This document shows positions 17,877 through 57,307 of a DNA stretch of 64,000 bases, in pieces (positions within the stretch are counted from its first letter, which is position 1; every line of letters starts with the position of its first letter). Origin of the DNA: Thermodesulfobacteriota bacterium (GTDB lineage: Bacteria; Desulfobacterota; Desulfobulbia; Desulfobulbales; JBFMBH01). Under the pieces are notes generated by a model. The model searched no databases, had not been told where the DNA came from, and worked only from the letters and a program-made list of their open reading frames with translations. The DNA lies in NCBI GenBank assembly GCA_040755095.1, contig JBFMBH010000005.1, positions 479-64,478 on the forward strand, written 5' to 3'. The position numbers were made by a program, and so were the translations under genes.

Positions 17877-17934
17877 GATTGCAGACCTCGCCTCGGAATG
17901 GTCGGCCTCTGGAGGTCGGGGAGCCCAGGGGGCC

Positions 17935-19065
17935 TCAGATCCCGTCCTTGGTGGAATGACATTTGAAACAGCCCGTGCCGGCGGCGGCGCCGGTGGTGCC
18001 CACCACCATGGCTGTCCGGTCCCAGCGCAGCATGTCCGGGAAAGGACTGCCATGGGCGCGGTGGCAGGACAGGCAGATGACCTTGTCGGTGCCTGGACGT
18101 ACGACGTTGGCCGCAAAACCGGTCAGGGTCGGCTCCGGCCGGCCCACCGGCACCTGGGGGTCATAGACCGTGTAGCTGGTGTACTCGGACCCCGCCTCGC
18201 CGGGAATGACCGCATCGGCGGGGTGCCGCAGCCAGGGGCTGGCGCCGCCGCCGTTGTCGGTGCCCATGAAGGTGGTGGCAAAGCCGGGAGAGTGGAAGTT
18301 GTAGTGGCAGCCGGCACAAAACTTGCCAATCGATTGCGGACTCTGGTTGTCCGAGCCGTCGCCGCCGTAATAGGTGTTGTGAGCGGTACCGGTCGGGCTC
18401 TGCTCCCAGTCAGGATCCTCGATGCCAGTGACACCGGCACCGCCCAGGAAATCGTGACCGGAGGGGGCGGCCAGGAAGCGGTACCAGCCGCCGTCTGCGC
18501 CCACCGGCTGGCCGGCCGGGTCGCCGCCGTGGTGCCTGACGCTGTTGTGGCAGCCCTGGCAGCCGTTCTTGCGGCCGCCGGTGGTCTGGGCATCGGTCAG
18601 GGTCAGGGAGACATGGCAGCTGTTGGCGCAGCCGACCGCGCCCGGCGCCACCTCGAGGGCGGCGTCTCTGGCCGAGACGCCCCGGACGTTGTGGCCGTGC
18701 TCGTCGCCCAGCGCGGCCACCCAGTAGAAGTTGCCTCCAGCCAGCGGGTCGGCGGGCGGAACCAGATTGTAGACGATGGGAATGCGGGAATCGGCGACAC
18801 TGACGATGGTTGCCCCGGCACTGCTTGTGTGGCAGCCGACGCAGTCGGTGACCAGGAGGGCGCCCTGGGGGCCGCTACCGGTGCCACCGCTCAGGCTGCC
18901 GCCGCTCCAGCCCGCCCCGGTGCCACTGGCCACCACCGCGGCGCCGGCCTGGCTGTTGTGCATGGTGTGGCAATTGCTGCACAGGCCGCTCACCCGAGCG
19001 TGACTGGTCGATTCCCAGCACAGCACCATGCCCATCGCCAGAGCCATGATCCGTCCGTCGTGCAT
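17935..19065 (-). CDS. OmcS-like multihaem cytochrome c, paralogue 1 (7 haem motifs, one of them CX3CH)
   Basis: Motifs CSNCHTMHNSQ, CVGCH, CANSCH, CQGCH, CAGCH, WLRHP, CLSCHRAHGS and C-terminal GCFKCHSTKDGI. GGAG lies 7 nt before ATG 19065 (MHDGRIMALAMG...). The longer ORF back to 19455 has a Pro/Arg-rich, non-protein-like N-terminus. Confidence 0.8.
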   Translation of the reverse strand: MHDGRIMALAMGMVLCWESTSHARVSGLCSNCHTMHNSQAGAAVVASGTGAGWSGGSLSGGTGSGPQGALLVTDCVGCHTSSAGATIVSVADSRIPIVYNLVPPADPLAGGNFYWVAALGDEHGHNVRGVSARDAALEVAPGAVGCANSCHVSLTLTDAQTTGGRKNGCQGCHNSVRHHGGDPAGQPVGADGGWYRFLAAPSGHDFLGGAGVTGIEDPDWEQSPTGTAHNTYYGGDGSDNQSPQSIGKFCAGCHYNFHSPGFATTFMGTDNGGGASPWLRHPADAVIPGEAGSEYTSYTVYDPQVPVGRPEPTLTGFAANVVRPGTDKVICLSCHRAHGSPFPDMLRWDRTAMVVGTTGAAAGTGCFKCHSTKDGI

Positions 19066-19798: not shown

Positions 19799-19841
19799 GG
19801 CTGGCTCTCCTCCTGTCCGGCTGCCGTCCCGTACAAAACGA

Positions 19842-20537
19842 TCACGGGGCAGCTGCGCCGGTTCCCGGCAGCTCGGCGAGGCGCTGCCGGGCCCGGCCGG
19901 CCAACTGCCCATCGGGGTAGCGGTCGATCAATGTCTGGAATCCCTGGCGGGCTGCCGTCAGGTCGCCCAGCTGGCTCTGGGACTCGGCACGGTAGAACAG
20001 CCACAGGGGCGACTTGCTGTCGATCCTGTCCGGGGATGCGGTGGCGGTAGCAGACAACTGCAGGAGCTCGGCCCAGGAGCCGTTCAAATACAACGCCCTG
20101 GCCATGGAGATCTCTGCGGCCGGCAGCACCGGGGAGGCGGGATAGCGGCTTCGGAGCTGGGCACGGCGTGCCAGCGCTGCCGCCACCCGGGGCGGCTGAT
20201 AGTCCCGCAGATCCATCTCGATCAGGCGCCAGTAGCTTTCCTGGGCCAGGGGCACATCCGGACACTGGTCGATGATCTCCTGGTACAGATCCGTCATCCG
20301 CCCCAGGTTCGCGGTCCGGTCCGGTCCTTGCGCCAGGTCGTGGATGGTGGAGAAGAGGGCCATGGCCCTCTTCTCCTGGTCATCACGGGACATCGGCGCC
20401 TTGTGCACGGGGCCCGCCTGGGAATCGGCCGTGATCCCTGCCGCCTCCGGTTGGGCAGCGGGGGCAGACGGCGGCCGCCACAGATGGGGGGCAAGAAGAA
20501 GGCTCGTGATCAGGACGACAAGAGCGGTTGGCGGCAT
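19842..20537 (-). CDS. Exported TPR-like protein (YbgF/BamD-like helical repeats)
   Basis: Signal-like N-terminus MPPTALVVLITSLLLAPHLW; GGAGAAAAAATG start context. C-terminal TPR-like LWLFYRAESQSQLGDLTAARQGFQTLIDRYPDGQLAGRARQRLAEL. Confidence 0.55.
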   Translation of the reverse strand: MPPTALVVLITSLLLAPHLWRPPSAPAAQPEAAGITADSQAGPVHKAPMSRDDQEKRAMALFSTIHDLAQGPDRTANLGRMTDLYQEIIDQCPDVPLAQESYWRLIEMDLRDYQPPRVAAALARRAQLRSRYPASPVLPAAEISMARALYLNGSWAELLQLSATATASPDRIDSKSPLWLFYRAESQSQLGDLTAARQGFQTLIDRYPDGQLAGRARQRLAELPGTGAAAP

Positions 20538-38719: not shown

Positions 38720-39904
38720 CTACGCGAGATCCTTGTGACAGCCGATGCACAGCTCCTTCTTGGACGGCTTGCGCAGCCGGAATTCAATGCTGGCGCCATG
38801 GTCGGCATGACAGGAGTTGCAGGTGATCCGTCCGTCCTCCAGGGTGTTGTATTCCTCCGGGATGGTCATCCCTTCCCGGGGGTAGACGTTCACAGGATGG
38901 GAGAGGACGTCCTTGGCTTCCTTGTGGCAGGTGTAGCAGATGGTGATGTTGGTCTCGAGCTCACTCCGCAAAGGAGGATGGTCGTCCGGCTTGCTGGCCC
39001 GCGCTCGTGGCTCGGGGGCCGCGGCTGTCCTCACCGGGGGCGGCGCTCCCACGGCCAGGCGCACTGGCTGGTTGGCGGCGAAGCGGACCAGGTAGCGATC
39101 GCCGTTGCGCAGGATGGTGTGCTCAAGCTCGATCACCTCGCTGCCCGCCTCCGCCGCCACCTCGACCGGTGAGACCGAGGTGGCCGTGGAGAGCTCCATG
39201 GCCTGCGATTCGCTCCGATTGCCGAACATGTCCTGGGATGCCACCCGGAAGCTGTATGTGGTCTTGGCCTTGAGGCCGGACAGGAGCACTTCGTGCTTGA
39301 GGCTCAGGTCATTGTCCGTGGGGGACTCGTTGTCCATGGCGCCGACACCGTAGAGCACCCGACTGTCCGCCACCTCGTCGGTGCGCCAGGCAATGGTGGC
39401 CGAGTAGAAGACCCCTCGCCGCACCTCTTTGACCTTGAGATCAGCGATCCGGGGCGGCGTGTGGTCATTGACCAGGGGGGGCAGGTCCTCCAGAGGGGGC
39501 AGGTCGAGCTGCTCGCTCACCAGGCCGCCGTGGCCATTGCTGGCCTTGACATAGAGGACATCGTCCACATCCGCCGGCGGGATCACAAACACATGCTCGG
39601 GCTGCGCCAGACCGCTTTCTCCCAGCCAGCGCAGATTGCGGGGCATGTCCGTGGTGGCGCGGCCCCTGGCGCCCTTGGTAGCGGTCCGGGTGGGGGCCAG
39701 ATGGCAGACGTGGCACTCGCGCCGCAGGAACGGCAGATGGATGAAGGGCTTGGCCAAGCTCTCGTCGCATTCCTGCTTGTGGCATTCGTAGCACGCCTCC
39801 GGGTCGTTGGGATCAGCGGCCGGGGCGCTGTGGGCAGCGGGACCGAGGGCGGCCAGGGCAGCGGCCAGCCCGGTGGCCAGAACGAGGTACTTGGGAGCAG
39901 CCAT
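38720..39904 (-). CDS. Secreted pentahaem cytochrome c with central fibronectin-type-III-like domain
   Basis: Signal peptide MAAPKYLVLATGLAAALAALGPAAHSA. Haem motifs CYECH, CHVCH, CYTCH, CNSCH and CIGCH. The middle segment ...YSATIAWRTDEVADSRVLYG...LLSGLKAKTTYSFRVASQDMFGN is FN3-like. Confidence 0.85.
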   Translation of the reverse strand: MAAPKYLVLATGLAAALAALGPAAHSAPAADPNDPEACYECHKQECDESLAKPFIHLPFLRRECHVCHLAPTRTATKGARGRATTDMPRNLRWLGESGLAQPEHVFVIPPADVDDVLYVKASNGHGGLVSEQLDLPPLEDLPPLVNDHTPPRIADLKVKEVRRGVFYSATIAWRTDEVADSRVLYGVGAMDNESPTDNDLSLKHEVLLSGLKAKTTYSFRVASQDMFGNRSESQAMELSTATSVSPVEVAAEAGSEVIELEHTILRNGDRYLVRFAANQPVRLAVGAPPPVRTAAAPEPRARASKPDDHPPLRSELETNITICYTCHKEAKDVLSHPVNVYPREGMTIPEEYNTLEDGRITCNSCHADHGASIEFRLRKPSKKELCIGCHKDLA

Positions 39905-41838: not shown

Positions 41839-42939
41839 CTAGTCCTTGTTGGTATGACACTTGAAGCAGCCCGAGTCTGCAGCTGCGCCGGCATTGTGGG
41901 CGTTCATGGTGGCGTAGTCCCAGCGGAGCAGGTCGTCGAAGGATGTGCCGTGTGCCCGGTGGCAGGAGATGCAGGTGACGATGGCCTGGCCGGCCACCGC
42001 CGGATTGACCGCTGCGGCCAGGTTGACCACGCCCACCGGCGCCTCGGCGTTGTCGACGTACGCGGCGTACTCGGAGCCGGTGGCGTCGCTCAGGTCGAAG
42101 TCCACCGGATGCCGCAGCCAGGGCGCGCCGAAGGTGGAGTCAACGCCGGTGTTGCCGGTGCCGCTGTGGAAGTTGCCGTGGCACTCGGCGCACAGGAAGC
42201 TGATGGTGCTCTTGTCCACCGAGGCCAGCTCGTCGCTGATCCGGTCCTTGCCCTTGTACTTGTTGCGATCAACGCTGGTCTCGTTCTCCCAGTCGTTGTC
42301 CTCGACGCCGGTGATCCCCATCAGGAAGCGGAAGCTCTTGCCCACGGTGCTGCCGTCGAGGGTGGCATCATCGGCATGGTGGGCGCCGGAGATGTCCTGG
42401 AAGTCGTCCGCTGCCGCATGCTTGCCGTGGCAGCCATAGGAGCCGGCGCAGGTCAGCTGGCTGGCCCAGGAGGCGGCACCGCCCGCCACCTGCGAGCCGC
42501 CGGTGGGGGTGAAGGTGGCGTCGTTGCTCCAGCCGGGGGGCGTCAGGCCAAAGGCCGCGCCATCCTGGGTGGCGATCCCCTTGACGTTGTGGCCCTTCTT
42601 GTCGACATCACCCTGGGCGTCCGCCACCCAGTAGAAGTTGCCGCCGGCCAGCACGCTGGTCACCGGCGAGGGGGCAGCGTCGGTCTTCAGGACCAGGGGG
42701 ATGTTGCTGGAGCCGCCCAGGAGCGCCGTGCCGCTGTGGCAGCCGACGCAGTCGCCCCGGGTCAGGGCCCGTTGCGGGGTGTTTGTGCCGTCATTGGCCA
42801 TGCTGGCGCCGTTCTGGGAGTTGTGCATGGTGTGACAGTCCGAGCAGACGCCGGTGACCCGGGCCTCGGCATTCCCGCTCAAGCCGCAGAATGCCAGCGC
42901 GAAACCGAAGGCAACGATGGAACCATACAGCTTCTTCAT
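41839..42939 (-). CDS. OmcS-like hexahaem cytochrome c, paralogue 2
   Basis: Signal peptide MKKLYGSIVAFGFALAFCGLSGNAEA. Motifs CSDCHTMHNSQ, CVGCH, CAGSYGCH, CAECH, WLRHP, CISCHRAHG and C-terminal GCFKCHTNKD. GAAGGAG RBS before ATG 42939. Confidence 0.85.
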   Translation of the reverse strand: MKKLYGSIVAFGFALAFCGLSGNAEARVTGVCSDCHTMHNSQNGASMANDGTNTPQRALTRGDCVGCHSGTALLGGSSNIPLVLKTDAAPSPVTSVLAGGNFYWVADAQGDVDKKGHNVKGIATQDGAAFGLTPPGWSNDATFTPTGGSQVAGGAASWASQLTCAGSYGCHGKHAAADDFQDISGAHHADDATLDGSTVGKSFRFLMGITGVEDNDWENETSVDRNKYKGKDRISDELASVDKSTISFLCAECHGNFHSGTGNTGVDSTFGAPWLRHPVDFDLSDATGSEYAAYVDNAEAPVGVVNLAAAVNPAVAGQAIVTCISCHRAHGTSFDDLLRWDYATMNAHNAGAAADSGCFKCHTNKD

Positions 42940-43607: not shown

Positions 43608-44408
43608 CTACATCATCATGGCGTGGGGATCGATATGGCAGGAAAGGCAGTTGGTGGGGTTGGCAATGCTCTTGTCATGGGGATTGCCGTGGCAGGTCAG
43701 GCACTCCGGCAGCAGGTCCGGGCCGTGGCCGAAGCGGTGGCAGAACACGCAGATGAAGGCACCGTGCTTGGTCTTGTTGGTCCGCTGCAGCTCCAGCTGC
43801 TCCGGGTGACAGCCGCCACAGTACGTGGACGGGATGTCCGTTGACCAGGCCACATGGGTCGGCTCATGGGGCTGGTGGCAGCGTAGGCAGGCGCCGTAAT
43901 CCATGCCCTCCACATGGGCCTGGTGGCATTTGAGGCAGGTCTTGAAGGTGCGGTGCACCGGGTGGCAGAAGGAGCAGTCCACCTCGGCATGGGCGCTGGG
44001 GAATTCCTGCATGGCGTCCCCGGGGTAGGGGTGGCAGGACAGGCAGGCCGGCTTGTTGTCGCTATCCTCCCGGAAGGTGATGAGCAGGGGCCGGTGGGGA
44101 TCCTGGTGGCAGGTCAGACACTCGGCCCGGGCGGCGAAGTGCTTGTTGGCAGCGGGCTGGTGGCAACGGGAGCATGCGGGCACCGCGTTCGTGCCCCGGG
44201 GGGGGTGCTCCACGTGGCAGTCCAGGCAGGTGACCCGGGTGCGGTGGCGCTCGCCGTCCTCGAAGATCGCCTTCTGCTGGTCGGGATGGCACTTCTTGCA
44301 GTCGGCGTTGGTCAGGACAGGGGGCTGGGCCCCGGCCTCCAGCACGGCAACCAAGAGACTTGCTGCCAGCACGCCCGCGATACCTGCCCAATAACCTTTG
44401 CTGTCCAC
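43608..44408 (-). CDS. Dodecahaem cytochrome c (12 CxxCH in 266 aa; poly-c7/c3-like)
   Basis: GTG start after GGGAGG. N-terminal hydrophobic segment WAGIAGVLAASLLVAVLEAGA. Twelve CxxCH motifs spaced about 15-25 aa apart. Confidence 0.9.
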   Translation of the reverse strand: MDSKGYWAGIAGVLAASLLVAVLEAGAQPPVLTNADCKKCHPDQQKAIFEDGERHRTRVTCLDCHVEHPPRGTNAVPACSRCHQPAANKHFAARAECLTCHQDPHRPLLITFREDSDNKPACLSCHPYPGDAMQEFPSAHAEVDCSFCHPVHRTFKTCLKCHQAHVEGMDYGACLRCHQPHEPTHVAWSTDIPSTYCGGCHPEQLELQRTNKTKHGAFICVFCHRFGHGPDLLPECLTCHGNPHDKSIANPTNCLSCHIDPHAMMM

Positions 44409-44470: not shown

Positions 44471-45445
44471 CTACTTCTGATGGATCTCGAAAACCTGCAC
44501 GCGCTTGTTGAAGGTGTCAGCGACGATGACCCGGCCGTAGGCGTCCACGCAAACGTCGGACGGGTAGGCCAGCCACCCCCGTCCCGAGCCCTGGCCGCCG
44601 AACTCGAACAGATAGCGTCCCTTCAGGTCGTAGACGTTGACCCCATGCCGCAAATAGTCCGCCACGTAAATGCGGCCGGCCCGGTCGTCCACCGCCACCC
44701 CCCGGGCTCGGGCGAGCTTCCCTGACGAGCCACCCTTCTCGCCGAACCGGAACAGGAAGCGCTCCTCGGCGTCGTAGACATAGACCCTGCCCATGCCCTC
44801 ACTGAGGAGGTAGAGATTCCCTTCCCGGTCGGTGTCCAAGGCGATGATATCCGCCACCTGGCGGCCGCCCCGCACCGTGTCCGTGGGGGCGATGACGTGG
44901 AGAAACCGGCCCTCCCGGTCCAGGACCAGGGCACCCGGATAGTTGCTGCCAGCCATGATGAGGCGGCCTCGGGATCCTTCCACCAGATGGCGGGGGGAGA
45001 ATTCGCTGGCGCCCTCGAAGCCGTCCAGGGTCATTTCCCGCACCTTGATGAAGGCGCCGTCATAGACCTTGATCGCCGGCAGCTCGCCCTGGGCCAGAGG
45101 GCCCCGGCCGGCGTAGAGCAGGCCGTCACCGGTCACCAGCACCGCCGAGGCCCGCCCCAGCTCGCGCCCCTCTCCCAGGGTGAAGGTCGGAAAGTAGTCG
45201 GCTCCGGCATAGAGGGCGATCCGGCCGCCGGCCCCGGAATGCAGGACGTAGAGCTCCTCGGCCTTGCGGTCGTAATGGAGGACCGAGGTGTAGCCCAGGG
45301 CCATGCTGTTGGCATCCACCTCGAGGACCTTGATCACCGCCGTCTCCACATTGGCTGCCGTGGTGGCGGCGGCGCCGGCTGGCTGGGGCCAGAGCGTGGC
45401 CAGGAGCAGGATCAGGAGGAGGACAGGGCTCAGCATGGCGCCCAT
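44471..45445 (-). CDS. Secreted NHL-repeat six-bladed beta-propeller protein
   Basis: Signal peptide MGAMLSPVLLLILLLATLWPQPAGA. NHL units such as ARGVAVDDRAGRIYVADYLRHGVNVYD and YPSDVCVDAYGRVIVADTFNKRVQVFE. No SD-like sequence before either candidate ATG (45445 or 45436). Confidence 0.85.
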   Translation of the reverse strand: MGAMLSPVLLLILLLATLWPQPAGAAATTAANVETAVIKVLEVDANSMALGYTSVLHYDRKAEELYVLHSGAGGRIALYAGADYFPTFTLGEGRELGRASAVLVTGDGLLYAGRGPLAQGELPAIKVYDGAFIKVREMTLDGFEGASEFSPRHLVEGSRGRLIMAGSNYPGALVLDREGRFLHVIAPTDTVRGGRQVADIIALDTDREGNLYLLSEGMGRVYVYDAEERFLFRFGEKGGSSGKLARARGVAVDDRAGRIYVADYLRHGVNVYDLKGRYLFEFGGQGSGRGWLAYPSDVCVDAYGRVIVADTFNKRVQVFEIHQK

Positions 45446-45565: not shown

Positions 45566-46675
45566 CTAGTCCTTGTTGGTGTGGCAGCGGAAGCAGCCGG
45601 TGTCGCTGTTGGCGCCGCCGCCGCCGGCGATCATGTTGTCGTAGTTCCAGCGTAGGAGGTCCGCGTTGTCGGAGCCGTGGGCCCGGTGGCAAGAGATGCA
45701 CAGCACGATGCCGTCCGCCGGAGTGGCGGGAAGGGCAGCGGTGCCGCGGGTCGTGGCGCTCAACGGCGCGCCTACCGGAACTTCCTCGTCATAGGCGTTG
45801 GTGCCCGCCGTGCCGTAGGAGGCATAGGAATCCCAGGCCTGGGAGGCGTTGCCGAGCCGGAAATCGGTGGGATGACGCAGCCAGGGAGTGCCCCCGGGGT
45901 CAGCCTGGCGGGTGGTGTTCAGGTTGGTGTTGGCCGAGGCGCCGACGCTGTGGAACAGGCCATGGCATTCGCCGCACAGGTAGCTGATGGTGGTGGTGTC
46001 CTCGTAGCCGGTGATGGTGCCGGATCCCACGGTGGCGCTGTTGCCGTTGATGCCGTCGTAGGCATTGCCGTCCGTGTCGCCGAAGCCCTTGTAGCTGGCC
46101 GAGGACTCCGTGCCGTCGATGCCCGCCAGCAGCCGGAAGCCGACCGCGGTGTCGTTGTGGTGACCGCCGGCGATGGCCACGGTCTCGTTGGCGTAGCTGT
46201 GGTTGCCGTGGCAGCCGAAAGAGCCGGCGCAGGTCAGCCGGTTGGTGCCCCAGCCGGCGGCGTTGGCGGGCAGGCCTGCAGCCACCGCCATGTAACCGGG
46301 TGGGGTATTGGCCAGCACGCCGTCCTGGGCGCCGGTACCGTTGACGTTGTGCTTGGTGTTGTCGGCGTTGGCGCTGTTGATGTAGCCGCCGGGCAGGACT
46401 GTGGCGGTCGAAGCGGCGTCACCCCAGATCGCCGGCGCATCGACGCTGGTCAGCCGGTCGGCGGCGTTGTCCTGCTTGTGGCAGCCGGCACAGGTGTCAA
46501 TGGTGAGCGAGTCGTTGGTGGCGGTGGTGTTGCCCATCACCGTGCCGTTCTGGCTGTTGTGCATGGTGTGGCAGTTGGCGCAGGGGCCGGTGACCTTGGC
46601 ATCGGCGCTGCCACCCAGGCCAGCCAGCACAGCGGCCGCACCGACCGCAATCAGGGTGCCGTACAGCTTCTTCAT
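45566..46675 (-). CDS. OmcS-like hexahaem cytochrome c, paralogue 3
   Basis: Signal peptide MKKLYGTLIAVGAAAVLAGLGGSADA. Motifs CANCHTMHNSQ, CAGCH, CAGSFGCH, CGECH, WLRHP, CISCHRAHGS and C-terminal GCFRCHTNKD. AAGGAGG RBS before ATG 46675. Confidence 0.85.
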   Translation of the reverse strand: MKKLYGTLIAVGAAAVLAGLGGSADAKVTGPCANCHTMHNSQNGTVMGNTTATNDSLTIDTCAGCHKQDNAADRLTSVDAPAIWGDAASTATVLPGGYINSANADNTKHNVNGTGAQDGVLANTPPGYMAVAAGLPANAAGWGTNRLTCAGSFGCHGNHSYANETVAIAGGHHNDTAVGFRLLAGIDGTESSASYKGFGDTDGNAYDGINGNSATVGSGTITGYEDTTTISYLCGECHGLFHSVGASANTNLNTTRQADPGGTPWLRHPTDFRLGNASQAWDSYASYGTAGTNAYDEEVPVGAPLSATTRGTAALPATPADGIVLCISCHRAHGSDNADLLRWNYDNMIAGGGGANSDTGCFRCHTNKD

Positions 46676-46938: not shown

Positions 46939-47091
46939 CGCCAGGGCTGGCTTGCGCACTGCATTTCGCGGTAGCCGGACCGGGGCAAATATGGTAAGGG
47001 AATGCCCGGATCCAAGGCCCCGGGCCGGTTTTGGCGTCAGGCCAGGGGGGCGACAGCCGAGCGGCCACTCGCTGCTCACAAGGAGATCTCG

Positions 47092-49254
47092 TTGAAGTCC
47101 AGACAGACCTCGGTTGTCGGCCTTCTCGCCATGCTGGGGGCGGCATGCGGGCTTGGCGTTTCCTGGCGCCAGGCCGGGGCCGGGCCGGTGGCCATCAACG
47201 CCACCCTGGACTACTCCGAGACGCGGGGGGACAGGGACAATGACAACGCCTTCCGCCAGACCTTCCAGGTGAGCCTGGCGGATGATATCGCCGTCACCGA
47301 TACCGTAAGCCTCACCCCGGGCTTCCGGCTCAACAACGACTCCAGCGGCGAGCGCAGTGGCGCCTACGCCATCGACCCCAACCTGGGGCTGGCCATGAAT
47401 ACCGACCTGTTCAGCATGAACGGGTCGTACTCCACGACCACCCGCAAGTCCTCGGGGGATCAGCCCAAGACCTTCTCCCAGGCCTGGGACGTCACCTGGG
47501 CCAGCCGCTGGGACCAGCCCTGGCCCTCCTTCCCGGTGCCGGTGCCCTCGGTGCGCGTCGCCTACGGCGGCAACACCACCGAATCCGGGGACGACCTGAC
47601 CGGCCGCAGCTCCTTTGTCACCGGCACGGTGACCGAGGAGTACGACATCTCCATCTTCCAGCTCGCCTACCGCTTTTCCCGGAACATGAACTGGGACGAG
47701 ATCGACGAGATCACCGGCACCAACGACACCCATGATTTCAGTGTCGACGCCAGCGACCGCTATCTGGACGACCGGGTGCAGCTGTCCATGAGCCACCAGA
47801 CCACCCTGGACCGCCGGGTCACCGAATTCAAGGGCGGGGCCGGCAAGGTGATCGAGGAGGGCTTCACGTTGTCGGAGGACGCCTTTGCGGGGCAGGACCC
47901 TCGACCCGCAGAGGAAAATATCTTCATGGACCTCAGCCTCGCCAACGGGCTCGTGAACAGGACGCTCACGGATCGGGTCGTGAACATTCGAGCGGGGGTC
48001 GATACCCCTGGCGCCATTAGCGGGGAGGAGTTCTGGAATATCCTCGTGGAGGTGCCAGCGGCGTTACAGGAGGTCTCCCGCATCTCTCTCTGGCTGGCCG
48101 AGGAGCTTGCGCTGGAGCCGGAAGGTCTGGACACGGAAGGCGACTACAGCTTTGACGTCTACGGGGGCATGACCCAGAATGGTCCCTTCCACCGGCTGAC
48201 GGGGGCGGATGGGCTCGGCGTGTATCAGTCAGGCGTTTTCCCGTCGGCCGGCGGCCTGCCGTTGGGGGGAGGGCTGCGGCCCCGTTTCCTGATCGACCTG
48301 CCCGCTGGGGCGTGGAATGGGGAGAACTTCCTCAAGGTGGTGTGCCGGATTGAGAAGCCAGTCTCCGTGGCGGCCTGGATCAGCGAGGTGACGCTTTCCC
48401 ATGTGCGCACCCTCACCACCGACGACGAGAAGGACGTCAATATCAGCAACACCTACAAGACCGGTCTGACCATGAACGTCGTCCCGGCCATGGACTGGCG
48501 CTTCTCCACCGGCCTGGTGCACACCCTGCGGGAAAGCTCGCCCGGGGGCGAGCGCACGGACCTGACCCACAACATGAACCTGTACTGGACCCCCAACCGT
48601 TATTTCCGGCCAGTGACGGCGTTCAACCGCAGTATCTCCTCGGGGGACGAAGAGGATACCCTGGAGAACCGCTCCTACAGCATGCGGGTGGCCTCCATGC
48701 CCCTGGATGCCCTGTCCACCTCCCTGGGCTTCACCCGCACCGAGGGCTACACCAACCAGGCCCTGGAGACCATCGGGGATGCCCTGTTTCTGAGCCTGGA
48801 CTCCCAGATCCTCCCCGATTTGTCCGCCAGCCTGGCCGCTTCCTCCACCAAGACGACCAACCGGGTCAGCGGTGCCACGGCCTCGGCCATGCAGGTGGAT
48901 CTGACCGGCAACATGCGGGTGACGCCCCGGCTCACGGCGGACGCCACCCTGGAATTCAGCGAGGCGGACGAGGAGCCCTTCGGCTATGGCGCTGCCCTGT
49001 CCTGGCGGCCGACGGATGTTCTGGCCTGCACCTTGGACTACGAAGGGGGCAACGAAAGCACCATCACCTTGTCTCCGGCCGTGCGGCTGAGCCGGGAGCT
49101 GCAGCTGACCGGCTCATTCGTCCACAGTGACGAGGACGATCTGTTGTCCGTGCAGTCCAAATGGCTGCTCAACGAGCTCATGACCCTGGACCTCCGCTAC
49201 CGGTGGCGGGAGGAGGAATGGGCCTGGAACGTGCGCTTGACAGCAGGCCTGTGA
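47092..49254 (+). CDS. Putative outer-membrane beta-barrel protein with a large inserted soluble domain
   Basis: TTG 47092 lies 6 nt after AAGGAG. Signal peptide KSRQTSVVGLLAMLGAACGLGVSW. Both ends are rich in short alternating polar/hydrophobic strands with Asn/Asp/Gly/Ser turns (LDYSETRGDRDNDNAFRQTFQVSL...; ...LTGSFVHSDEDDLLSVQSKWLLNELMTLDLRYRW). No family recognised by eye. Confidence 0.6.
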   Translation: MKSRQTSVVGLLAMLGAACGLGVSWRQAGAGPVAINATLDYSETRGDRDNDNAFRQTFQVSLADDIAVTDTVSLTPGFRLNNDSSGERSGAYAIDPNLGLAMNTDLFSMNGSYSTTTRKSSGDQPKTFSQAWDVTWASRWDQPWPSFPVPVPSVRVAYGGNTTESGDDLTGRSSFVTGTVTEEYDISIFQLAYRFSRNMNWDEIDEITGTNDTHDFSVDASDRYLDDRVQLSMSHQTTLDRRVTEFKGGAGKVIEEGFTLSEDAFAGQDPRPAEENIFMDLSLANGLVNRTLTDRVVNIRAGVDTPGAISGEEFWNILVEVPAALQEVSRISLWLAEELALEPEGLDTEGDYSFDVYGGMTQNGPFHRLTGADGLGVYQSGVFPSAGGLPLGGGLRPRFLIDLPAGAWNGENFLKVVCRIEKPVSVAAWISEVTLSHVRTLTTDDEKDVNISNTYKTGLTMNVVPAMDWRFSTGLVHTLRESSPGGERTDLTHNMNLYWTPNRYFRPVTAFNRSISSGDEEDTLENRSYSMRVASMPLDALSTSLGFTRTEGYTNQALETIGDALFLSLDSQILPDLSASLAASSTKTTNRVSGATASAMQVDLTGNMRVTPRLTADATLEFSEADEEPFGYGAALSWRPTDVLACTLDYEGGNESTITLSPAVRLSRELQLTGSFVHSDEDDLLSVQSKWLLNELMTLDLRYRWREEEWAWNVRLTAGL

Positions 49255-49408
49255 TGTGCTCTACTCGCCCCGAAGTCTGCGCTGCTGCGTCCAGTCCAGG
49301 GCCGGCGGCCACGGATCCGGAACCGATTGTGCTGTGTGGGGCGACGGCATTGGCGGCAGGCGGCCGTGCTCCGGACCGGCGGCATTCTGGCAGAGAGGAC
49401 TTTTCCAT

Positions 49409-50041
49409 ATGGCTGGCTGGTGGCCGATCCGGCGGCAGGTGCGGAAGGCGGGCGGCAGGGGATGGCAGGGGGCCGTGGCGGCTCGCCTGGGGGGACTTCT
49501 GCTGGTGGTCCTGGTGGCCGGTTGCAGCTCCCATGCCCTGACCTATTATGTCCGGGAGGGCGCTGACCTGACCTTCATCAAGAAGGTGGCGGTCATGCCC
49601 CTGGCCAACAACACCAAGGAGAAGTTTGCCGCCGACCGGGTGCGCAACATCGTGCTGACCCAGGTTCTGGTGGACAGCCTGTTCGACGTCACCGAGACTG
49701 GCCAGCTGGAGAAGATCCTGGAGGAGGAGGCCGGCAAGGCGGATGCGCCTCTGGATGAGGCCCTGGCCCGCCGGCTCGGCAAGCGGTTGTCCGTACAGGC
49801 GTTTCTCCTGGGATCGGTGGATGCCTACGACGAGGAGCGCAAGGGCAACTACTCGTATCCCGTCGTTGCCATGACCTTGAAGCTGGTGGATGCCGAGACC
49901 GGTCTCATTCTGTGGCAGGCCAGCGGCTCTTACAGCGGCTACAGCAGCTGGAGCCGCATCCTCGGCACCCAGGGCAGGGATCAGTCGGCGGTGACCTTTC
50001 GTCTCGTGCGGTCGCTTCTGGCCAGTCTCAGCGGCGACTAG
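49409..50041 (+). CDS. Lipoprotein, PelC/CsgG-N/LpoB/DUF799-like alpha/beta fold, paralogue 1
   Basis: Lipobox LVAGC. KKVAVMPLANNT...DSLFDVTE...LGKRLSVQAFLLGSVDAY...VAMTLKLVDAETGLILWQA. Confidence 0.7.
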   Translation: MAGWWPIRRQVRKAGGRGWQGAVAARLGGLLLVVLVAGCSSHALTYYVREGADLTFIKKVAVMPLANNTKEKFAADRVRNIVLTQVLVDSLFDVTETGQLEKILEEEAGKADAPLDEALARRLGKRLSVQAFLLGSVDAYDEERKGNYSYPVVAMTLKLVDAETGLILWQASGSYSGYSSWSRILGTQGRDQSAVTFRLVRSLLASLSGD

Positions 50042-51640: not shown

Positions 51641-52304
51641 TTCGGCCAGCACCGGCTGCTGGCCGCCCGGGTCGAAAAGCCGCTCCGGGGGGACCCCTGG
51701 CGGTTCGCATCCAGGTCGGGTACACTGGCTCGTCACCGTTCTTCTGGCGTGTCTCGCCGCCGGCTGCGGCAAGGCCCAGCACAGTCTGGGCCTGGTGGCC
51801 GCGGGGGGGGAGGGGATCTGCCGGGTGGCGGTGCTGCCCTTCCGGGACCAGGGCAAGGTGCCCTTTGGCGGGCACGTGGTCCAGCGGACGTTCACCGCGG
51901 AGCTCATCGCCAGCGGCCGCTTCGATGTAGCCCTGGAGGGTGAGGTGCTGGCCTTTTTCCGGGAGAACCGGCAGCTGCCCCAGGCGACCCTGTCCCGGGA
52001 CTTCTACATCAAGATGGGCCAGACCATGGGCGTGGACGCCATCGTGGCGGGCACGGTGCTCGGCATGAGCGAAGGCTCCGAGGGCCGGGATATGGTGGTG
52101 CCAGAGGTGGCCTTCTCCCTGGAGCTGATCCGGATCCGGGATGGCAAGCCCCTGGTGGTGACCCACCACCACCGTGCCGGGGATGAGTATCGATGGCTCA
52201 TGCACGTCGGGGTGGTGCAGACCATTTCGGAGCTGGTGAGCCGGATGAGCAAGGAGGCGATCGAGGAATGGCGTATCTTGGGCTTCGAGGGTTGTCGGTT
52301 GTGA
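51618..52304 (+). CDS. Lipoprotein, same alpha/beta fold, paralogue 3
   Basis: Lipobox CLAAGC. CRVAVLPFRDQG...SGRFDVAL...MGVDAIVAGTVLGM...AFSLELIRIRDGKPLV. AAGGAG RBS; the start overlaps the upstream stop by 23 nt. Confidence 0.7.
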   Translation: MSGMRSSSSASTGCWPPGSKSRSGGTPGGSHPGRVHWLVTVLLACLAAGCGKAQHSLGLVAAGGEGICRVAVLPFRDQGKVPFGGHVVQRTFTAELIASGRFDVALEGEVLAFFRENRQLPQATLSRDFYIKMGQTMGVDAIVAGTVLGMSEGSEGRDMVVPEVAFSLELIRIRDGKPLVVTHHHRAGDEYRWLMHVGVVQTISELVSRMSKEAIEEWRILGFEGCRL

Positions 52305-53992
52305 AGCGGGCCAGCTTGCTGGGCCTCGTGACGGTGCTGGTGCTCTGGGGCTCCCTGGCACAGGCGGTGTGGCCCTTCGGGGAACGGCACCTCCTGGTTC
52401 TCAATGGCGCCGGGCACAGCAAGGCGGATTTTCTGCAATTCTGGGAGCAGTGGAAGGAAGAGGACAGCCCGGTTCCCGACAGCCCGGATTTCTGGATCGA
52501 CTGGCTGCTGTTTTATCAGGAGGCCGAGCAGATGGAGCTGGGCGATGCCCCGGCGGTGCAGGCCAAGCTGTTCACCTTCCTCAAGGTGCGGGCCCTCATG
52601 CAGCTGCGCCAGGACGAGGTGACCAGCAGGATGGCCGCCGTCGATGAGGAGCGCCTCTGGCAGCGCTATTTGCAGGACGAGGCGCCCCTGTACAAGATCG
52701 AGAGCGTGCTCATCGCCGACCAGGCGGCTGCTGGCCGCTTCGCTGAGCTGGCGCGGGCTGGCCGCCCGTTCGCCGAGGTCGTCACCGATCCCAGCCTCGG
52801 CCTGGCCGAGCCGCCCAAGGTGATCTCGTCGGACTGGCTGCGGAAGAGCAAGGTGCCCGAGACCTACCGGGAGGATCTGGCGAAGGCCGAGCTCGGCTCC
52901 GTGCTCGGTCCCCTGTTCTGGGAGCCCAAGAAGACCTACTACCTGGTGCGGAAGGTAGAGCAGCAGGCTGGCAGCCAAGAGGACTTCCAGAGGATCCGCA
53001 AGGACATCGAGGAGCGGCTCTTCAAGGAGGAGGACGGCCGCCTGACCAGAGACCTCCTGGTCCGTCTGATGAAGGAGTACGAGGTGGTGACCCACGACGA
53101 CCGGATCGAAGCCCTGCCCATGAACGGCGGCTCCCAGGAGCAGCTGAGCGCCGTGGTGGTGGAGATGAAGGGCGGCAGGACGGTCACCGGCGGTGAGCTC
53201 GTGCAGATGGTGATGCGGGATCTGTCCATGCGGATGCGGCCCAATGCCCAGGGCTCTTTCGACATGGTGCATGGCGATTTCAATGACGCCAAGCGCCGGG
53301 TGCTCATGGATTACCTGGGGGCGGAGCTGACGGTTCGGGCCGCCCTGGACCGTCACTATGAGCAGAAGCCGCCCATCAAGGATGTGTTCGATTTTTACCG
53401 CCAGCGGCGCATGATCCTCGAGCTGAAGAACCGGCTGTTCCGCACCCAGGTGGAGGTCAGCGACCAGGAGGCCCAGGCCTTCTACCAGGCCAACCAGCAG
53501 CTGTTCACCCACCCCGCCTCCCTGGAGCTCGCCATCCTGAGCACCCGGGACGAGAAGCTGGCCGATTTCCTGCGCAAGGAGCTTCTCTCGGGCAAGGATT
53601 TCTTCGAGGTGGCCAACCATGTGGTGGCCGGCGGGGTGAATCCGACCAATGTGCTGGTGAGCGATCTCGATCCGGCGATGGTCGAGGCCCTGTCCGGAGT
53701 GGCCGAGGGGGCGCAGGTGGGCCCGGTGAAGATCGGCGAGGATACCCACTTCATCAAGCTTATCCGCCGGCGGGAGTCGGTGGTGCGGCCCTTGGACGAA
53801 GTCAAGCACATGATCACCAGGAAGCTGCACGAGGAGCGGATCCAGGAGAAGGAGGAGGCCTTTCGGCAGAAGCTGCGGGCGGTCTCCAAGATCGAGGTGG
53901 ATGACGGCCAGTGGCAGGAGGTGGTCCGCACCCTGAAGGCCCAGGAGGCGGCCCGGCAACAGGAGAAGGACAAGCCGGCAAAGGGCAGTTGA
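52301..53992 (+). CDS. SurA/PpiD-like periplasmic chaperone with parvulin-type peptidyl-prolyl isomerase domain
   Basis: GTG 52301 overlaps the upstream stop (GTGA); the alternative is ATG 52268. Signal peptide VKRASLLGLVTVLVLWGSLAQA. C-terminal rotamase-like ...FFEVANHV...VSDLDPAMVEALSGVAEGAQVGPVKIGEDTHFIKLIRRR. Confidence 0.75.
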   Translation: MKRASLLGLVTVLVLWGSLAQAVWPFGERHLLVLNGAGHSKADFLQFWEQWKEEDSPVPDSPDFWIDWLLFYQEAEQMELGDAPAVQAKLFTFLKVRALMQLRQDEVTSRMAAVDEERLWQRYLQDEAPLYKIESVLIADQAAAGRFAELARAGRPFAEVVTDPSLGLAEPPKVISSDWLRKSKVPETYREDLAKAELGSVLGPLFWEPKKTYYLVRKVEQQAGSQEDFQRIRKDIEERLFKEEDGRLTRDLLVRLMKEYEVVTHDDRIEALPMNGGSQEQLSAVVVEMKGGRTVTGGELVQMVMRDLSMRMRPNAQGSFDMVHGDFNDAKRRVLMDYLGAELTVRAALDRHYEQKPPIKDVFDFYRQRRMILELKNRLFRTQVEVSDQEAQAFYQANQQLFTHPASLELAILSTRDEKLADFLRKELLSGKDFFEVANHVVAGGVNPTNVLVSDLDPAMVEALSGVAEGAQVGPVKIGEDTHFIKLIRRRESVVRPLDEVKHMITRKLHEERIQEKEEAFRQKLRAVSKIEVDDGQWQEVVRTLKAQEAARQQEKDKPAKGS

Positions 53993-54098: not shown

Positions 54099-56123
54099 AT
54101 GATGCAGGAGACACGCCAAGTGGGCAATGGCAGTCGGATGGGGCTCTTGGGGAGACAGGGAACGGTGTGGCTGTTGACCGCCGCGCTGCTCCTGGGGCTG
54201 GCCGCCTGCGTGCCCCAGCCGTCCGAGTCGTCCCGATCTGCCGGCAAGGCCAAGAAGAGCTGCGTGGAGTGCCACGAGACCGAGTACAAGGCCTTCCAGA
54301 CCGGGGTGGTGCACAAACCGGTACAGGAGGCCAAATGCGACGGCTGCCATGACCCCCACGGCATGATCGGCGGCACCTTGCTCAAAGCGGATGAGCCGGA
54401 GCTGTGCTATTCCTGCCACGCTGCCGTCCGCCAGGCGGTCCAGGGGGCGGCTCACGGCCATCCGCCGCTCCAGAGCACGACGGCCGCCTGCACCAGCTGC
54501 CATGCTGTCCACAACTCCCCCCATGCCAAGCTCCTCAAGGAGCCGGCCGCTACCTTGTGCTTCAAGTGTCACGATCAGACGGAGTTCGGCCGCACCAACC
54601 GTCACCAGCCGCTGCAAACCGGGTGTGCCTCATGCCACCAGGTGCATGGCGCCCCGGCAGCCAAGCTGCTGCCCAAGGAGCCGGACGCCTTCTGCCAGGA
54701 CTGCCACCAGCCGGACGGCAAGGGGATGGAGGCAGGCCACCGGGGGTACCCCGTGCAGGGGGGCTGCGTCTCTTGCCATCAGCCCCACTCGGCCAGTCGC
54801 GCCAAGCTGATCCGGGAGGTCCCGCACCAGCCGATGCTGGAGGGGCAGTGCGAGTCCTGCCATGCCGGCAAGGGCAAGCCCGAGCCACTCGCCCTGACCG
54901 GCACGGGCAGCAGCCTGTGCCGCGGCTGCCATGACGATGTGACCGCCGGTCAGACCCAGAGCGTCCATGCACCGGTCACCGGGGGCGAGTGTCTCTCCTG
55001 CCACGCCCCCCACGGCAGCAACCACCAGGCCATGTCCCGTCAGGCCCCGGAAAGGCTGTGCTTCGAGTGCCATACCTTCAAGCAGATCGGGCCGGAGAAG
55101 ACAGGGCAGACCGAGAACGGCCACCAGCCGGCTGCCGAAGGCCGGTGCCTGACCTGCCACGCGGCCCACGCCGCACCGGTCAAGCCGCTGCTCAAGAGCC
55201 CTGCCGCCGACCTGTGCTTCTCCTGCCATGGCAAGGAGCCGGGGTTGGCCGACCGGAGCCACCAGCCGGTGAAGGAGCGGCGCTGCACCTTGTGCCACTC
55301 GCCCCACGAGTCCCAGGGCAGCCATCTTCTGGCGGGAAGCGAGCAGGAGATCTGCCTGACCTGTCACAAGAAGACCGGGGACGATATGACCCTGGCCTAT
55401 CTCCATCATCCCTTTGCCAACGGCGATTGCACCGGCTGCCACGCCGCCCACGGCTCCAGAAGCGCCGGCATGCTCAAGGCCAGCGGCGTTGCCCTGTGCG
55501 CCTCCTGCCACCAGAAGCTCATCGAGGAGCGGACGGCCAATATGAAGAAGCATCAGCCCTTTGCCCAGGGCGAGTGCATGAAGTGCCACGCCCCCCATGG
55601 CTCGGACAACCCCTTCACCCTGGTGCACAAGCTGGCGGACACCTGCTTCACCTGTCACAGCGGCCTGGAGCGCCAGATCGGCTCGGCCCGGCAGGTCCAT
55701 GAACCGGTGGTCAAGCGGAACTGCACCGCCTGTCATACGCCGCATGCCTCGGCCCAGGACCACCTGATCACCCGGGCGATGCCCGAGCTGTGCCTGGCCT
55801 GCCACAAGGAGGTGGCGGAATTCTGGAGCGGCGGCTTCGCGCATGAGCCGGCGGTCTCCGGGCAGTGCGCCAGCTGCCACGTCAGCCATGCCGGCGCCGA
55901 GGCCAAGCTGCTGGCCCGCAGCGCCTCAGGTCTGTGCGCCACCTGCCATCAGATCAGTGATACGGAGATGGTGCGGATCCACAAGGGGATCCGGCCGTCG
56001 GAAAAGAGCTGCACCAGCTGCCACGACAGCCATGGCTCTCCCACCCAGAGCCTGACCTTTGCGGTGGAGCATGCCCCCTTCAAGGAGCGGGACTGCAAAC
56101 CATGCCACGAGGAGGCGAAGTGA
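54099..56123 (+). CDS. Lipoprotein multihaem cytochrome c with 26 CxxCH motifs
   Basis: Lipobox LLGLAAC. Twenty-six CxxCH motifs counted, in a paired arrangement (C..CH.[PV]H......L.......LC..CH). The start may be ATG 54138. Confidence 0.9.
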   Translation: MMQETRQVGNGSRMGLLGRQGTVWLLTAALLLGLAACVPQPSESSRSAGKAKKSCVECHETEYKAFQTGVVHKPVQEAKCDGCHDPHGMIGGTLLKADEPELCYSCHAAVRQAVQGAAHGHPPLQSTTAACTSCHAVHNSPHAKLLKEPAATLCFKCHDQTEFGRTNRHQPLQTGCASCHQVHGAPAAKLLPKEPDAFCQDCHQPDGKGMEAGHRGYPVQGGCVSCHQPHSASRAKLIREVPHQPMLEGQCESCHAGKGKPEPLALTGTGSSLCRGCHDDVTAGQTQSVHAPVTGGECLSCHAPHGSNHQAMSRQAPERLCFECHTFKQIGPEKTGQTENGHQPAAEGRCLTCHAAHAAPVKPLLKSPAADLCFSCHGKEPGLADRSHQPVKERRCTLCHSPHESQGSHLLAGSEQEICLTCHKKTGDDMTLAYLHHPFANGDCTGCHAAHGSRSAGMLKASGVALCASCHQKLIEERTANMKKHQPFAQGECMKCHAPHGSDNPFTLVHKLADTCFTCHSGLERQIGSARQVHEPVVKRNCTACHTPHASAQDHLITRAMPELCLACHKEVAEFWSGGFAHEPAVSGQCASCHVSHAGAEAKLLARSASGLCATCHQISDTEMVRIHKGIRPSEKSCTSCHDSHGSPTQSLTFAVEHAPFKERDCKPCHEEAK

Positions 56124-57307
56124 TGCGCGGCTTTTTCCTGATCGTCGTGATGGCGGCCGGCCTCGGCTTCACCCTCGCCGAGGCCCAGGCCGCCCGGACC
56201 AACTGCACGGCCTGCCACGACCCCGAGAGCTTCGCTGGCCGGGTGGTGCATGGCCCGGTGGCGGAGAAGAAATGCTTTTCCTGCCACAGCCCCCACGCCT
56301 CCCGCCATGAAGCCCTGCTCTATGGCAAATCCCCGGAGCTGTGCTTCAGCTGCCACAAGGATATCGACGAGGGGCTGAAGAAGCAGGAGATGCTGCACGG
56401 CCCGGTCCGGCAGGGCAAGTGCGCCGACTGCCACCTGCCGCATGCGGGCAAGGACGATGCCCTGCTCAAGGCCGGGGTACCGGAGTTGTGCTTCGGCTGC
56501 CACAAGGAGGTGGCCGGCCGGGGTGCCCGGCATACCCATGCGCCGTTTGCCCGGGGCCAGTGTCAGGCCTGCCACGTGGCCCACGGCTCCAGCACGGTCG
56601 CCCTGCTCAAGGCCGGGGTGCCGGGGCTGTGCCTGGGCTGCCACAAGGACGAAGGCGCGATCCGCGGCAAGCATTTGGGACGGGCCCTGGCGGGGATGGA
56701 CTGCCTCACCTGCCACAGCGGCCACGGCTCGGACCACAACGCCCTGGTGCGCAACAACCTCCACCCGCCGTTCAAAGACAAGGACTGCGGCACCTGCCAC
56801 AACCGTACCGACAAAGGGGTGGCCCTGTGCTTCGACTGCCACGAAGGCATCCAGAGCTCCTTCAACTACACCCACAACCACATGATGTCGGTGTCCGGGG
56901 TGGACAACATCTGTCTGTCCTGCCACAACGCCCATGCAGCGGACGACAAGAAGATGCTGGCCGGCACCCAGTACGGTGTCTGCAAGCGCTGTCACGCCGA
57001 CACCTTCAAGCGCCGGGAGGGGGCGTTGCACACCCATCCCAACTGGGGGGTCTGCACCAATTGCCATCAGGCCCACGGCTCCAACCAGATCGCCCTCATC
57101 CGGGGGGATGGCAATGGCACCTGTGAGCAGTGCCATGCCACCCAGGGCAAGTTTGTCCACCCCATCGGCGACAAGGTCCGGGATCCCCGTTCCGGCCAAC
57201 CGGTGACCTGTGTCACCTGCCACAATGTCCATGGCACCGCCTTCAAGTACAACCTCCGCCTGTCGGGGGAGAAGGACCTCTGTGTCCAGTGCCACAAGAG
57301 CTACTAG
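56123..57307 (+). CDS. Periplasmic/secreted multihaem cytochrome c with 16 CxxCH motifs
   Basis: Signal peptide MRGFFLIVVMAAGLGFTLAEAQA. Sixteen CxxCH motifs counted. Its ATG overlaps the upstream stop (TGATG). Confidence 0.9.
   Translation: MRGFFLIVVMAAGLGFTLAEAQAARTNCTACHDPESFAGRVVHGPVAEKKCFSCHSPHASRHEALLYGKSPELCFSCHKDIDEGLKKQEMLHGPVRQGKCADCHLPHAGKDDALLKAGVPELCFGCHKEVAGRGARHTHAPFARGQCQACHVAHGSSTVALLKAGVPGLCLGCHKDEGAIRGKHLGRALAGMDCLTCHSGHGSDHNALVRNNLHPPFKDKDCGTCHNRTDKGVALCFDCHEGIQSSFNYTHNHMMSVSGVDNICLSCHNAHAADDKKMLAGTQYGVCKRCHADTFKRREGALHTHPNWGVCTNCHQAHGSNQIALIRGDGNGTCEQCHATQGKFVHPIGDKVRDPRSGQPVTCVTCHNVHGTAFKYNLRLSGEKDLCVQCHKSY

Follow-up and report, generated by a model that had tools for sequence, protein, structure and literature searches.

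In OmcS, the hexahaem nanowire cytochrome of Geobacter sulfurreducens, the stacking of the haems follows motif order and each of the 12 axial ligands is a histidine residue (PMC6584659), haem 3 being bound by a canonical CSSCH motif. Wider spacing between the two haem-binding cysteines is known from other cytochromes. In OmcZ, also an extracellular nanowire cytochrome of G. sulfurreducens, both cysteines of an expanded CX14CH loop were found to be thioether-bonded in the cryo-electron microscopy structure (PMC9473688), and non-canonical long spacing between haem-binding cysteines is likewise a feature of MccA/SirA (CX15CH; also CX11CH and CX17CH). A survey of Desulfuromonadia published in 2024 gives CXCK, CX2CK, CX3CH, CX4CH, CX11CH, CX15CH and CX17CH as natural motifs, the modest expansions CX3CH and CX4CH of cytochrome c3 among them, and does not include CX5CH (PMC11492766). 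Here we describe a conserved CX5CH motif in OmcS-like cytochromes encoded on a 64,000-nucleotide stretch of DNA (the window; G+C content, 67%) from a Thermodesulfobacteriota bacterium (contig JBFMBH010000005.1, positions 479 to 64,478). The window encodes three OmcS-like paralogues, referred to below as paralogues 1, 2 and 3.

The CX5CH site and its place in the OmcS family

Paralogue 2 is encoded at 41839..42939 on the minus strand, and is a secreted hexahaem cytochrome of the OmcS family with five CXXCH motifs and one CX5CH motif in 366 amino acids (aa). The likely start of its reading frame, MKKLYG, is located at 42939 and the stop at 41839, and the product carries a Sec-type signal peptide. 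A protein annotated by NCBI as 'cytochrome c3 family protein' from a Thermodesulfobacteriota metagenome-assembled genome (MAG) is 100% identical to it (P0001). Translation of 42427-42450 on the minus strand (tgc gcc ggc tcc tat ggc tgc cac) gives C164-A-G-S-Y-G-C170-H171, which we assign as the haem-3 attachment motif from the translation, its conservation in 120 homologues and a hairpin in the AlphaFold model. Paralogue 3 (45566..46675, minus strand; 369 aa), a hexahaem OmcS-family cytochrome 47.5% identical to paralogue 2, reads CAGSFGCH at 46208..46231 on the minus strand, as judged by translation and comparison of the codons with those of paralogue 2. The initial annotation, made from the letters of the window, had reported these two CX5CH sites as well as a three-residue spacing in paralogue 1, and translation returned the same spacing at each of the three, paralogue 1 reading CANSCH at 18613..18630 (minus strand). 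When every open reading frame of the window with at least two CXXCH motifs was scanned for C-x2-6-CH, the other cytochromes covered being those with 5, 12, 13, 16 and 26 haems, no non-canonical site was detected outside the three paralogues.

The C-x5-CH motif was detected at the same place in all of the 120 best homologues of paralogue 2 (44-55% identity), among which C164, G166, G169, C170, H171 and G172 are invariant. The central observation of the initial annotation, a conserved CX5CH in two paralogues, thus stands. By pooling 380 proteins and 83 genomic loci, we collected 267 family sequences with the consensus Q-L-T-C-A-G-[TVA]-[YN]-G-C-H-G-x-[H/R]. This set was chosen by a pattern requiring both cysteines and the histidine, so that their presence there holds by construction; independent support comes from the three glycine positions, each of which is Gly in 250-254 of the 267. 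Among about 330 sequences that are complete from the haem-1 to the haem-5 motif, there was none with a haem-3 CH but without a nearby upstream Cys. Two sequences, P0376 and P0261, are devoid of the whole haem-3 module, the missing stretch beginning shortly behind GHN and ending past the HH pair, and their sequences indicate deletions of the complete module, natural or artefactual, and not the loss of a single cysteine.

The scan of species-representative genomes identified 86 genes with the architecture 2-2-5-2-2, carried by Thermodesulfobacteria, Desulfobulbia, Desulfuromonadia, Desulfofervidaceae and Nitrospirota, with cultured strains among the carriers. In a rough neighbour-joining tree, one clade of 156 sequences was formed, of which 148 have exactly this architecture. 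As judged from these sequences, CX5CH distinguishes a large and so far uncharacterised branch within the OmcS family. Chance or an assembly artefact was rejected as the origin of the motif, which recurs in hundreds of independent assemblies. Members at 41-47% identity were also observed on short contigs binned as Heimdallarchaeota (L038) and as Chloroflexota/Anaerolineales (L025 and L052); for these placements mis-binning is more likely than a true distribution, horizontal transfer being possible.

All three paralogues are homologues of OmcS. As a single sequence, paralogue 2 matched OmcS (PDB 6EF8/6NEF) by phmmer at E=5.9e-8, while the profile of the 120 homologues matched it at E=2.8e-18 over OmcS residues 8-348, and OmcS was the sole match among all PDB sequences. 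The AlphaFold model of paralogue 2, built on the alignment of the 120 homologues, has a predicted local distance difference test score (pLDDT) of 82 and a predicted template modelling score (pTM) of 0.83. When this model was searched with Foldseek, OmcS was again the sole significant match, with E=6e-6, a probability of 1.00 and a template modelling (TM) score of 0.42. The two proteins are alike in full-length homology, secretion signal, motif order and conserved distal histidines (GHN, CH...H, LRHP, CHRAH). The landmarks CxxCHTMH, GHN, CxxCHxxxH, LRHP and CxSCHRAH of OmcS are kept, and six haem motifs stand in the conserved order in paralogue 2, provided that CX5CH is counted as a haem site. 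His16 of OmcS, which ligates haem 5 of the neighbouring subunit, has its equivalent within CSDCHTMH of paralogue 2, where H39 is 100% conserved in both the hexahaem and heptahaem clades. The hexahaem clade retains the six proximal histidines plus at least seven further invariant ones, a number that is enough for six bis-His haems.

In contrast to these shared features, the identity between OmcS and the CX5CH branch is about 20-27% and the TM score only 0.42, and the two differ around haem 3. This haem is bound by CSSCH in OmcS, whereas in paralogue 2 it would be bound by CX5CH in a predicted hairpin, and the segment after the motif is rebuilt, with an x15 spacer and then an invariant HH in the CX5CH branch and CHDPH in OmcS. 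OmcS is a nanowire cytochrome, and filament formation by the CX5CH branch is a prediction. Another departure was noted at 42265-42267, where paralogue 2 has R225 and paralogue 3 has Gly at a position that is His with 93% conservation in both clades. This position is the H of an H-N-x-Y segment and is Tyr in OmcS. Since Arg, Gly and Tyr are found there, this histidine is probably not an obligatory axial ligand.

We then located the CX5CH site relative to the haem motifs of OmcS. C164 is placed opposite the first Cys of the OmcS CSSCH within the shared context QL[TH]C by HMMER, MAFFT and hhalign, the QLTC of the CX5CH clade aligning with the QLHC of OmcS in the profile comparison. In addition, five hexahaem relatives that bridge the two carry other spacings at the haem-3 site, namely CX2CH in P0353 (LQCQGCH-x4-HH) and P0349 (IDCGDCH-x4-HH), CX7CH in P0346 (QLECGRGEANGCH), CX10CH in P0364 (QVTCAGSTGAIITGCH) and CX12CH in P0321 (QVRCSGGSGSGAGSLGCH). 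In all five the motif is followed by the conserved HH, and the flanks 'L-x-C' and 'G-C-H' are common to them. Because these relatives have the same flanks with other spacings, we read CX5CH as C140...C143-H144 of OmcS with an insertion of three residues. The initial annotation had placed the expanded motif at the OmcS haem-3 position and considered it conserved there across all three paralogues; the alignments and the bridging relatives bear this out for paralogues 2 and 3 but not for paralogue 1, of which the CX3CH is a different, extra site.

Variation in spacing was also observed within a single locus. On a Desulfobulbaceae MAG contig (L023; JAWSUG010000006.1), three tandem paralogues on the minus strand have CX5, CX8 and CX10 at the haem-3 site. 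Altogether, the haem-3 unit of two cysteines and one histidine is kept over loop lengths of 2, 5, 7, 8, 10 and 12 residues, and when two other sites of the family are included, the Cys-Cys spacing takes a continuous range of 1 to 15 residues, and tandem paralogues are unlike in it. The sequences at the haem-3 site are as expected for a loop that varies in length while the cysteines at its two ends are conserved. Each of the three tandem paralogues on L023 also carries a further extra motif (CX5, CX9 and CX7, respectively) between the HNEY segment and haem 4, which represents a third expanded location.

Haem attachment and maturation at the expanded site

In the AlphaFold model of paralogue 2, the site forms a beta-hairpin with strands at 162-165 and 169-172, and the 10-residue blocks in this region average a pLDDT of >90. 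By AlphaFold and DSSP, C164 and C170 are located on adjacent strands of the hairpin, and a direct cross-strand pairing of the two may be deduced from the DSSP strand boundaries. We consider it probable that the third of six haems is attached via CX5CH, an ancestral CXXCH plus three residues, through both cysteines and by general cytochrome c biogenesis. In the scheme that we infer, from the thioethers and the lyase to filament formation and the functional effect of the hairpin, the CX5CH protein would be a secreted subunit of a predicted extracellular haem wire, in which an ancestral C-x-x-C-H gained three residues and became fixed as C-A-G-x-[Y/N]-G-C-H. C164 and C170 would form one thioether each to the vinyl groups of one haem, with H171 as the proximal iron ligand, and the glycine-rich insert would make a tight beta-hairpin in place of the usual helical turn. 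Haem 3 would keep its place in the linear chain of haems 1-6, while the hairpin would alter the local surface and environment. Maturation would most likely be carried out by general machinery tolerant of Cys-Cys spacing, that is, System II CcsBA in most of these lineages. Given the stacking order in OmcS, haem 3 should be an interior link, and its loss would break the wire. The motif-less variants P0376 and P0261 lost the HH along with the rest of the module, which supports the presence of a haem-3 unit and not a lone cysteine loss. The doubly bonded CX14CH loop of OmcZ provides a structural precedent for attachment through both cysteines.

Several points weigh against this reading. The members of the CX5CH branch are known from their sequences and predicted structures, and the AlphaFold models are haem-free, the geometry of the hairpin being taken from DSSP and pLDDT. 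The alignment register at the site is ambiguous, because aligners avoid opening a gap of three residues: ungapped HMMER alignment sets H171 opposite H147 of OmcS, hhalign pairs C170 with the cysteine that opens the canonical CQGCH in paralogue 1, and one large MAFFT run pairs C164 with the second Cys of the paralogue 1 CX3CH. The Ccm system reportedly attaches haem to CXnCH with n = 2-6 but cleanly only for n = 3-4, and is said to give heterogeneous products in vitro at n = 5-6. At two loci (L080 and L055, described below), a ResB-CcsA pair may represent a specialised lyase in those lineages. Furthermore, native CX14CH OmcZ was not producible in Shewanella, whereas the version with a CXXCH replacement was producible (bioRxiv 10.64898/2026.07.18.739370), indicating that long spacings are not universally tolerated.

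A shift in register was examined in two forms, one with H171 equivalent to OmcS H147 and the other with C170 as the canonical first Cys and H174 as a relic of the proximal His. Three observations led to its rejection as the main reading: the two ungapped registers are mutually incompatible; the position of H174 is His in 58-71% of sequences against 99-100% for H171; and the bridging sequences share both flanks around loops of unequal length. A fusion origin, by deletion between a CX3CH of the paralogue 1 type and CQGCH, was hinted at by one large MAFFT alignment. This was also rejected, being less parsimonious since the canonical hexahaem relatives P0349 and P0353 have CXXCH-x4-HH and no extra motif.

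The role of C164 bears on two other explanations of the site. Haem might be attached by C170-H171 alone, with C164 as a structural residue or a remnant, in a manner similar to the euglenozoan (A/F)XXCH. Single-thioether c-type haems of this kind exist in nature, and both the shifted register suggested by the ungapped alignments and the heterogeneity reported for Ccm products at n = 5-6 could be accommodated. C164 is, however, invariant in the 120 closest homologues and is kept whatever the loop length, from CX2 to CX12, and the region-complete sequences with a haem-3 CH all have a Cys nearby upstream. A free cysteine beside a haem in a secreted protein is not expected to be so strictly conserved, and the strand of C164 is adjacent to that of C170 in the modelled hairpin. 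We therefore regard attachment through a single thioether as decidedly unlikely. Cross-strand Cys pairs are, on the other hand, able to form disulfides, and the site might hold no haem at all, a C164-C170 disulfide stapling the hairpin of a pentahaem protein. Programs that count CX2-4CH do score these proteins as pentahaem, and the survey of Desulfuromonadia reports 'pentaheme' homologues of OmcS (PMC11492766). Against this, H171 directly after C170 is invariant, the number of conserved distal histidines fits six haems, the site is continuous with the canonical CXXCH of close relatives, and the linear chain that defines OmcS would be broken without haem 3. A haem-free site appears to us very improbable.

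If both cysteines bind haem, the next question is the lyase. The initial annotation had noted that no lyase gene is visible in the window and had pointed out that known expanded sites, such as the CX15CH of MccA, need a dedicated one. The absence was confirmed, since neither Pfam scans of the other predicted genes nor a six-frame scan for the WWD motif (CcsA/CcmF/CcmC) revealed a lyase gene in the 64-kb window, but the need for a dedicated enzyme at CX5CH found no support. Within 10 kb of the family genes, a WWD-domain (Ccs or Ccm) gene was present at four of 83 loci (1.33 Mb in total) and at none of the remaining 79, and no lyase was detected in the companion cluster of the window, L001, L002 or the Desulfobulbaceae contig L003. 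The neighbours of CX5CH genes include System II genes at L044, L055 and L080 and the System I genes CcmF/CcmC at L047. In Desulfovibrio cytochrome c3, maturation of the CX4CH sites can be carried out by the Ccm system of E. coli. The variable spacing, even between tandem paralogues, is better explained by a tolerant enzyme than by one specific to a motif, and from the sequences a lyase specific to CX5CH is unlikely.

A dedicated lyase could nonetheless be encoded by a paralogue elsewhere in the genome, which is represented here by one 64-kb stretch, and be required for both cysteines to bind haem. Such an arrangement would parallel CcsA1 for the CX15CH of MccA and NrfI/NrfEFG for CXXCK, dedicated lyases on which these known long-spacing and CXXCK sites depend. 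L080 has a row consisting of the OmcS-like gene, a multihaem cytochrome, ResB and CcsA, L055 has CcsA among multihaem cytochrome genes, and the failure of native CX14CH OmcZ in Shewanella points in the same direction. The 79 loci without a WWD-domain gene nearby, the conserved companion cluster without a lyase, the occurrence of CX5CH genes beside genes of both System I and System II, and the range of spacings from 1 to 15 at three sites, unequal in tandem paralogues, all argue for general machinery instead, and we judge the requirement for a dedicated lyase to be unlikely.

The ResB (PF05140) and CcsA (PF01578) genes at L080 (9363-13142, plus strand) and L055 (11022-12559, plus strand) are in line with multihaem cytochromes just downstream of a CX5CH OmcS-like gene. 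The WWD sequence of the pair is the unusual WGRFW[GA]WDPIETW, and such a pair was observed at only two of the 83 loci. In L003, a gene for a Redoxin/AhpC-TSA protein with TPR (6415-7452, minus strand) adjoins the OmcS-like cluster, and its product could be an apocytochrome thiol reductase of the CcmG/ResA type; no equivalent of this Redoxin/TPR protein was found in the window.

Comparison with described motifs

No paper on 'CX5CH' or 'CXXXXXCH' was found in the literature searched, nor was any found there for CX6, CX7, CX8, CX10 or CX12, the CX14CH of OmcZ being the only such spacing encountered. Haem motifs have been counted by the regular expression CXnCH with n = 2-5 (PMC5815863; PMC12545173), and CX5CH is counted implicitly in this way but is neither described nor placed in the literature searched. 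OmcS-like genes in the partners of methane-oxidising archaea were described without comment on the motif (PMC10553843). The OmcS-like cytochromes known from syntrophic sulfate reducers and from Desulfurivibrio alkaliphilus belong to the same superfamily, and their taxa, Desulfobulbia, Thermodesulfobacteria, Desulfofervidus and Desulfuromonadia, are also the same (PMC10553843; PMC12545173), but the motif appears there as a count by regular expression, and the signature, position and variability of CX5CH are not described.

The known expanded motifs differ from CX5CH in several respects. OmcZ has an unrelated fold, its expanded site is at another haem position, and its 14-residue loop contributes to the subunit interface, whereas the loop of paralogue 2 is five residues long, glycine-rich and strictly conserved. 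In tetrahaem cytochrome c3 and its relatives, the general biogenesis system is responsible for the CX3CH and CX4CH sites, the longer of which is one residue short of CX5CH. In MccA/SirA, the extra loop builds a catalytic site and the gene for a dedicated lyase is located in the same operon, in contrast to CX5CH, for which no lyase is linked in 79 of 83 loci and which would serve an electron-transfer haem. On balance, we lean slightly towards the view that CX5CH is a natural two-thioether motif, the first with such spacing, and that, across the OmcS-like superfamily, the interval between the two cysteines is a loop free to evolve. The free-loop behaviour of this interval at three sites is a more surprising result than CX5CH itself.

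If this view is correct, resident lyases (System II and apparently System I) would be looser on spacing in vivo than the textbook CXXCH implies. Measurement of spacing by lyases has to our knowledge been probed with artificial variants only, and the natural series CX2, CX5, CX7, CX8, CX10 and CX12 at homologous sites makes up a test set for the measurement of distance by CcsBA and CcmFH. For environmental multihaem cytochromes, both the number of haems and the predicted function are derived from motif expressions, and motif-based censuses would systematically undercount haems in OmcS-like proteins. A conserved CX5CH would turn apparent 'pentahaem' homologues of OmcS into hexahaems with an unbroken haem chain, and the 'pentaheme' homologues of the Desulfuromonadia survey are probably CX5CH hexahaems undercounted by one haem. 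The carriers are of ecological importance. Among them are thermophiles that cycle sulfur and iron, relatives of cable bacteria and the partners of methane-oxidising archaea, and the genes for OmcS-like proteins rank with the most highly expressed in these organisms (PMC10553843; PMC12545173). The manner in which haem 3 is held could affect redox tuning or the surface chemistry of the wires.

Paralogue 1 and the gene neighbourhood

Paralogue 1 (17938..19065, minus strand) is a 375-aa heptahaem cytochrome of the OmcS family with six CXXCH motifs and one CX3CH motif. Its CANSCH, the extra seventh haem motif, comes directly after a PPG anchor, at a distance of some 20 residues upstream from the haem-3 site, and is not the positional homologue of CX5CH, the stretch matching it being cysteine-free in paralogues 2 and 3. 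By alignment, the haem-3 equivalent of paralogue 1 is a canonical CQGCH (18547..18561, minus strand) followed by x4-HH, which is modelled as helical by AlphaFold (H169-172). From the combination in its sequence of an extra CANSCH with a canonical CQGCH at haem 3, paralogue 1 is assigned to the heptahaem clade. The OmcS-like protein DA_402 of Desulfurivibrio alkaliphilus, described with seven motifs (PMC12545173), is of the same type.

The extra site is itself variable. Among the 120 best homologues of paralogue 1 (P0121-P0240), its spacing is CX3 in 58, CX2 in 21, CX4 in 12, CX5 in five and CX6 in three; rarer spacings are CX1 (two sequences) and CX7, CX8, CX9, CX10 and CX15 (one or two each). 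The flanks G-C...C-H-x-S-L-[AT] are conserved around it, and where the loop is long it is Gly-, Ser- and Asn-rich. In Thermosulfuriphilus ammonigenes (L001, 11204-12331) and Thermodesulfatator atlanticus (L002, 11135-12238), a heptahaem-type paralogue with CX2 or CX4 at the extra site stands in tandem after a CX5CH hexahaem gene. The pairing of hexahaem and heptahaem genes appears to be conserved, though the heptahaem copy in the window is about 23 kb away.

Paralogues 2 and 3 are located within a companion cluster that is syntenic in L001, L002 and L003 and consists of an NHL propeller, multihaem cytochromes, a large protein without a Pfam match, an LpoB/CsgG-like lipoprotein and a PpiC-type isomerase. 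Between the two hexahaem paralogues, a 12-haem cytochrome of the c7/c3 type (43608..44408, minus strand), identified by motif count and Pfam, is followed by an NHL-repeat beta-propeller protein (44471..45445, minus strand), a Pfam assignment also found beside the OmcS-like genes of L001 and L002. Divergent from paralogue 3, the gene at 47002..49254 on the plus strand encodes a 750-aa protein that has no Pfam match and corresponds to a conserved 620-700-aa neighbour in other genomes, and a role as a component of the outer membrane is possible. It is followed on the same strand by genes for the LpoB/CsgG-like lipoprotein (49256..50041) and a PpiC-type peptidyl-prolyl isomerase (Rotamase_2; 52193..53992), both assigned by Pfam and synteny. 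This neighbourhood of isomerase, beta-propeller and lipoprotein presumably resembles the omcS-companion (osc) cluster of Geobacter.

On the other side of the OmcS-like genes, a 394-aa pentahaem cytochrome (Paired_CXXCH) is encoded at 38720..39904 on the minus strand, as judged by motif count and Pfam. Its placement differs from that in related clusters, in which a cytochrome of 389-397 aa with the same Pfam match lies beside a further NHL-family gene, beyond the isomerase and a gene for a protein of about 645 aa. After the isomerase gene of the window, two adjacent genes on the plus strand, 54099-56123 and 56102-57307, encode cytochromes with 26 and 16 haems, respectively, which are built from repeating units of Paired_CXXCH.

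Immediately downstream of paralogue 1, two adjoining genes are located on the minus strand. The product of one (7610-15463) is 2617 aa long and has a GEVED domain as well as 13 CXXCH motifs, all within the N-terminal quarter; the other (15477-17900) encodes a protein of about 800 aa with NHL and InlB-B-repeat-like (Flg_new_2) domains. This arrangement resembles a second module for extracellular cytochromes. Directly upstream of paralogue 1, a PilZ-domain protein of the cyclic di-GMP receptor type is encoded at 19394-19912 on the minus strand, and a PilZ/PAS protein is encoded near the cluster in L003 (985-1692), so that these cytochromes may be under the control of cyclic di-GMP.

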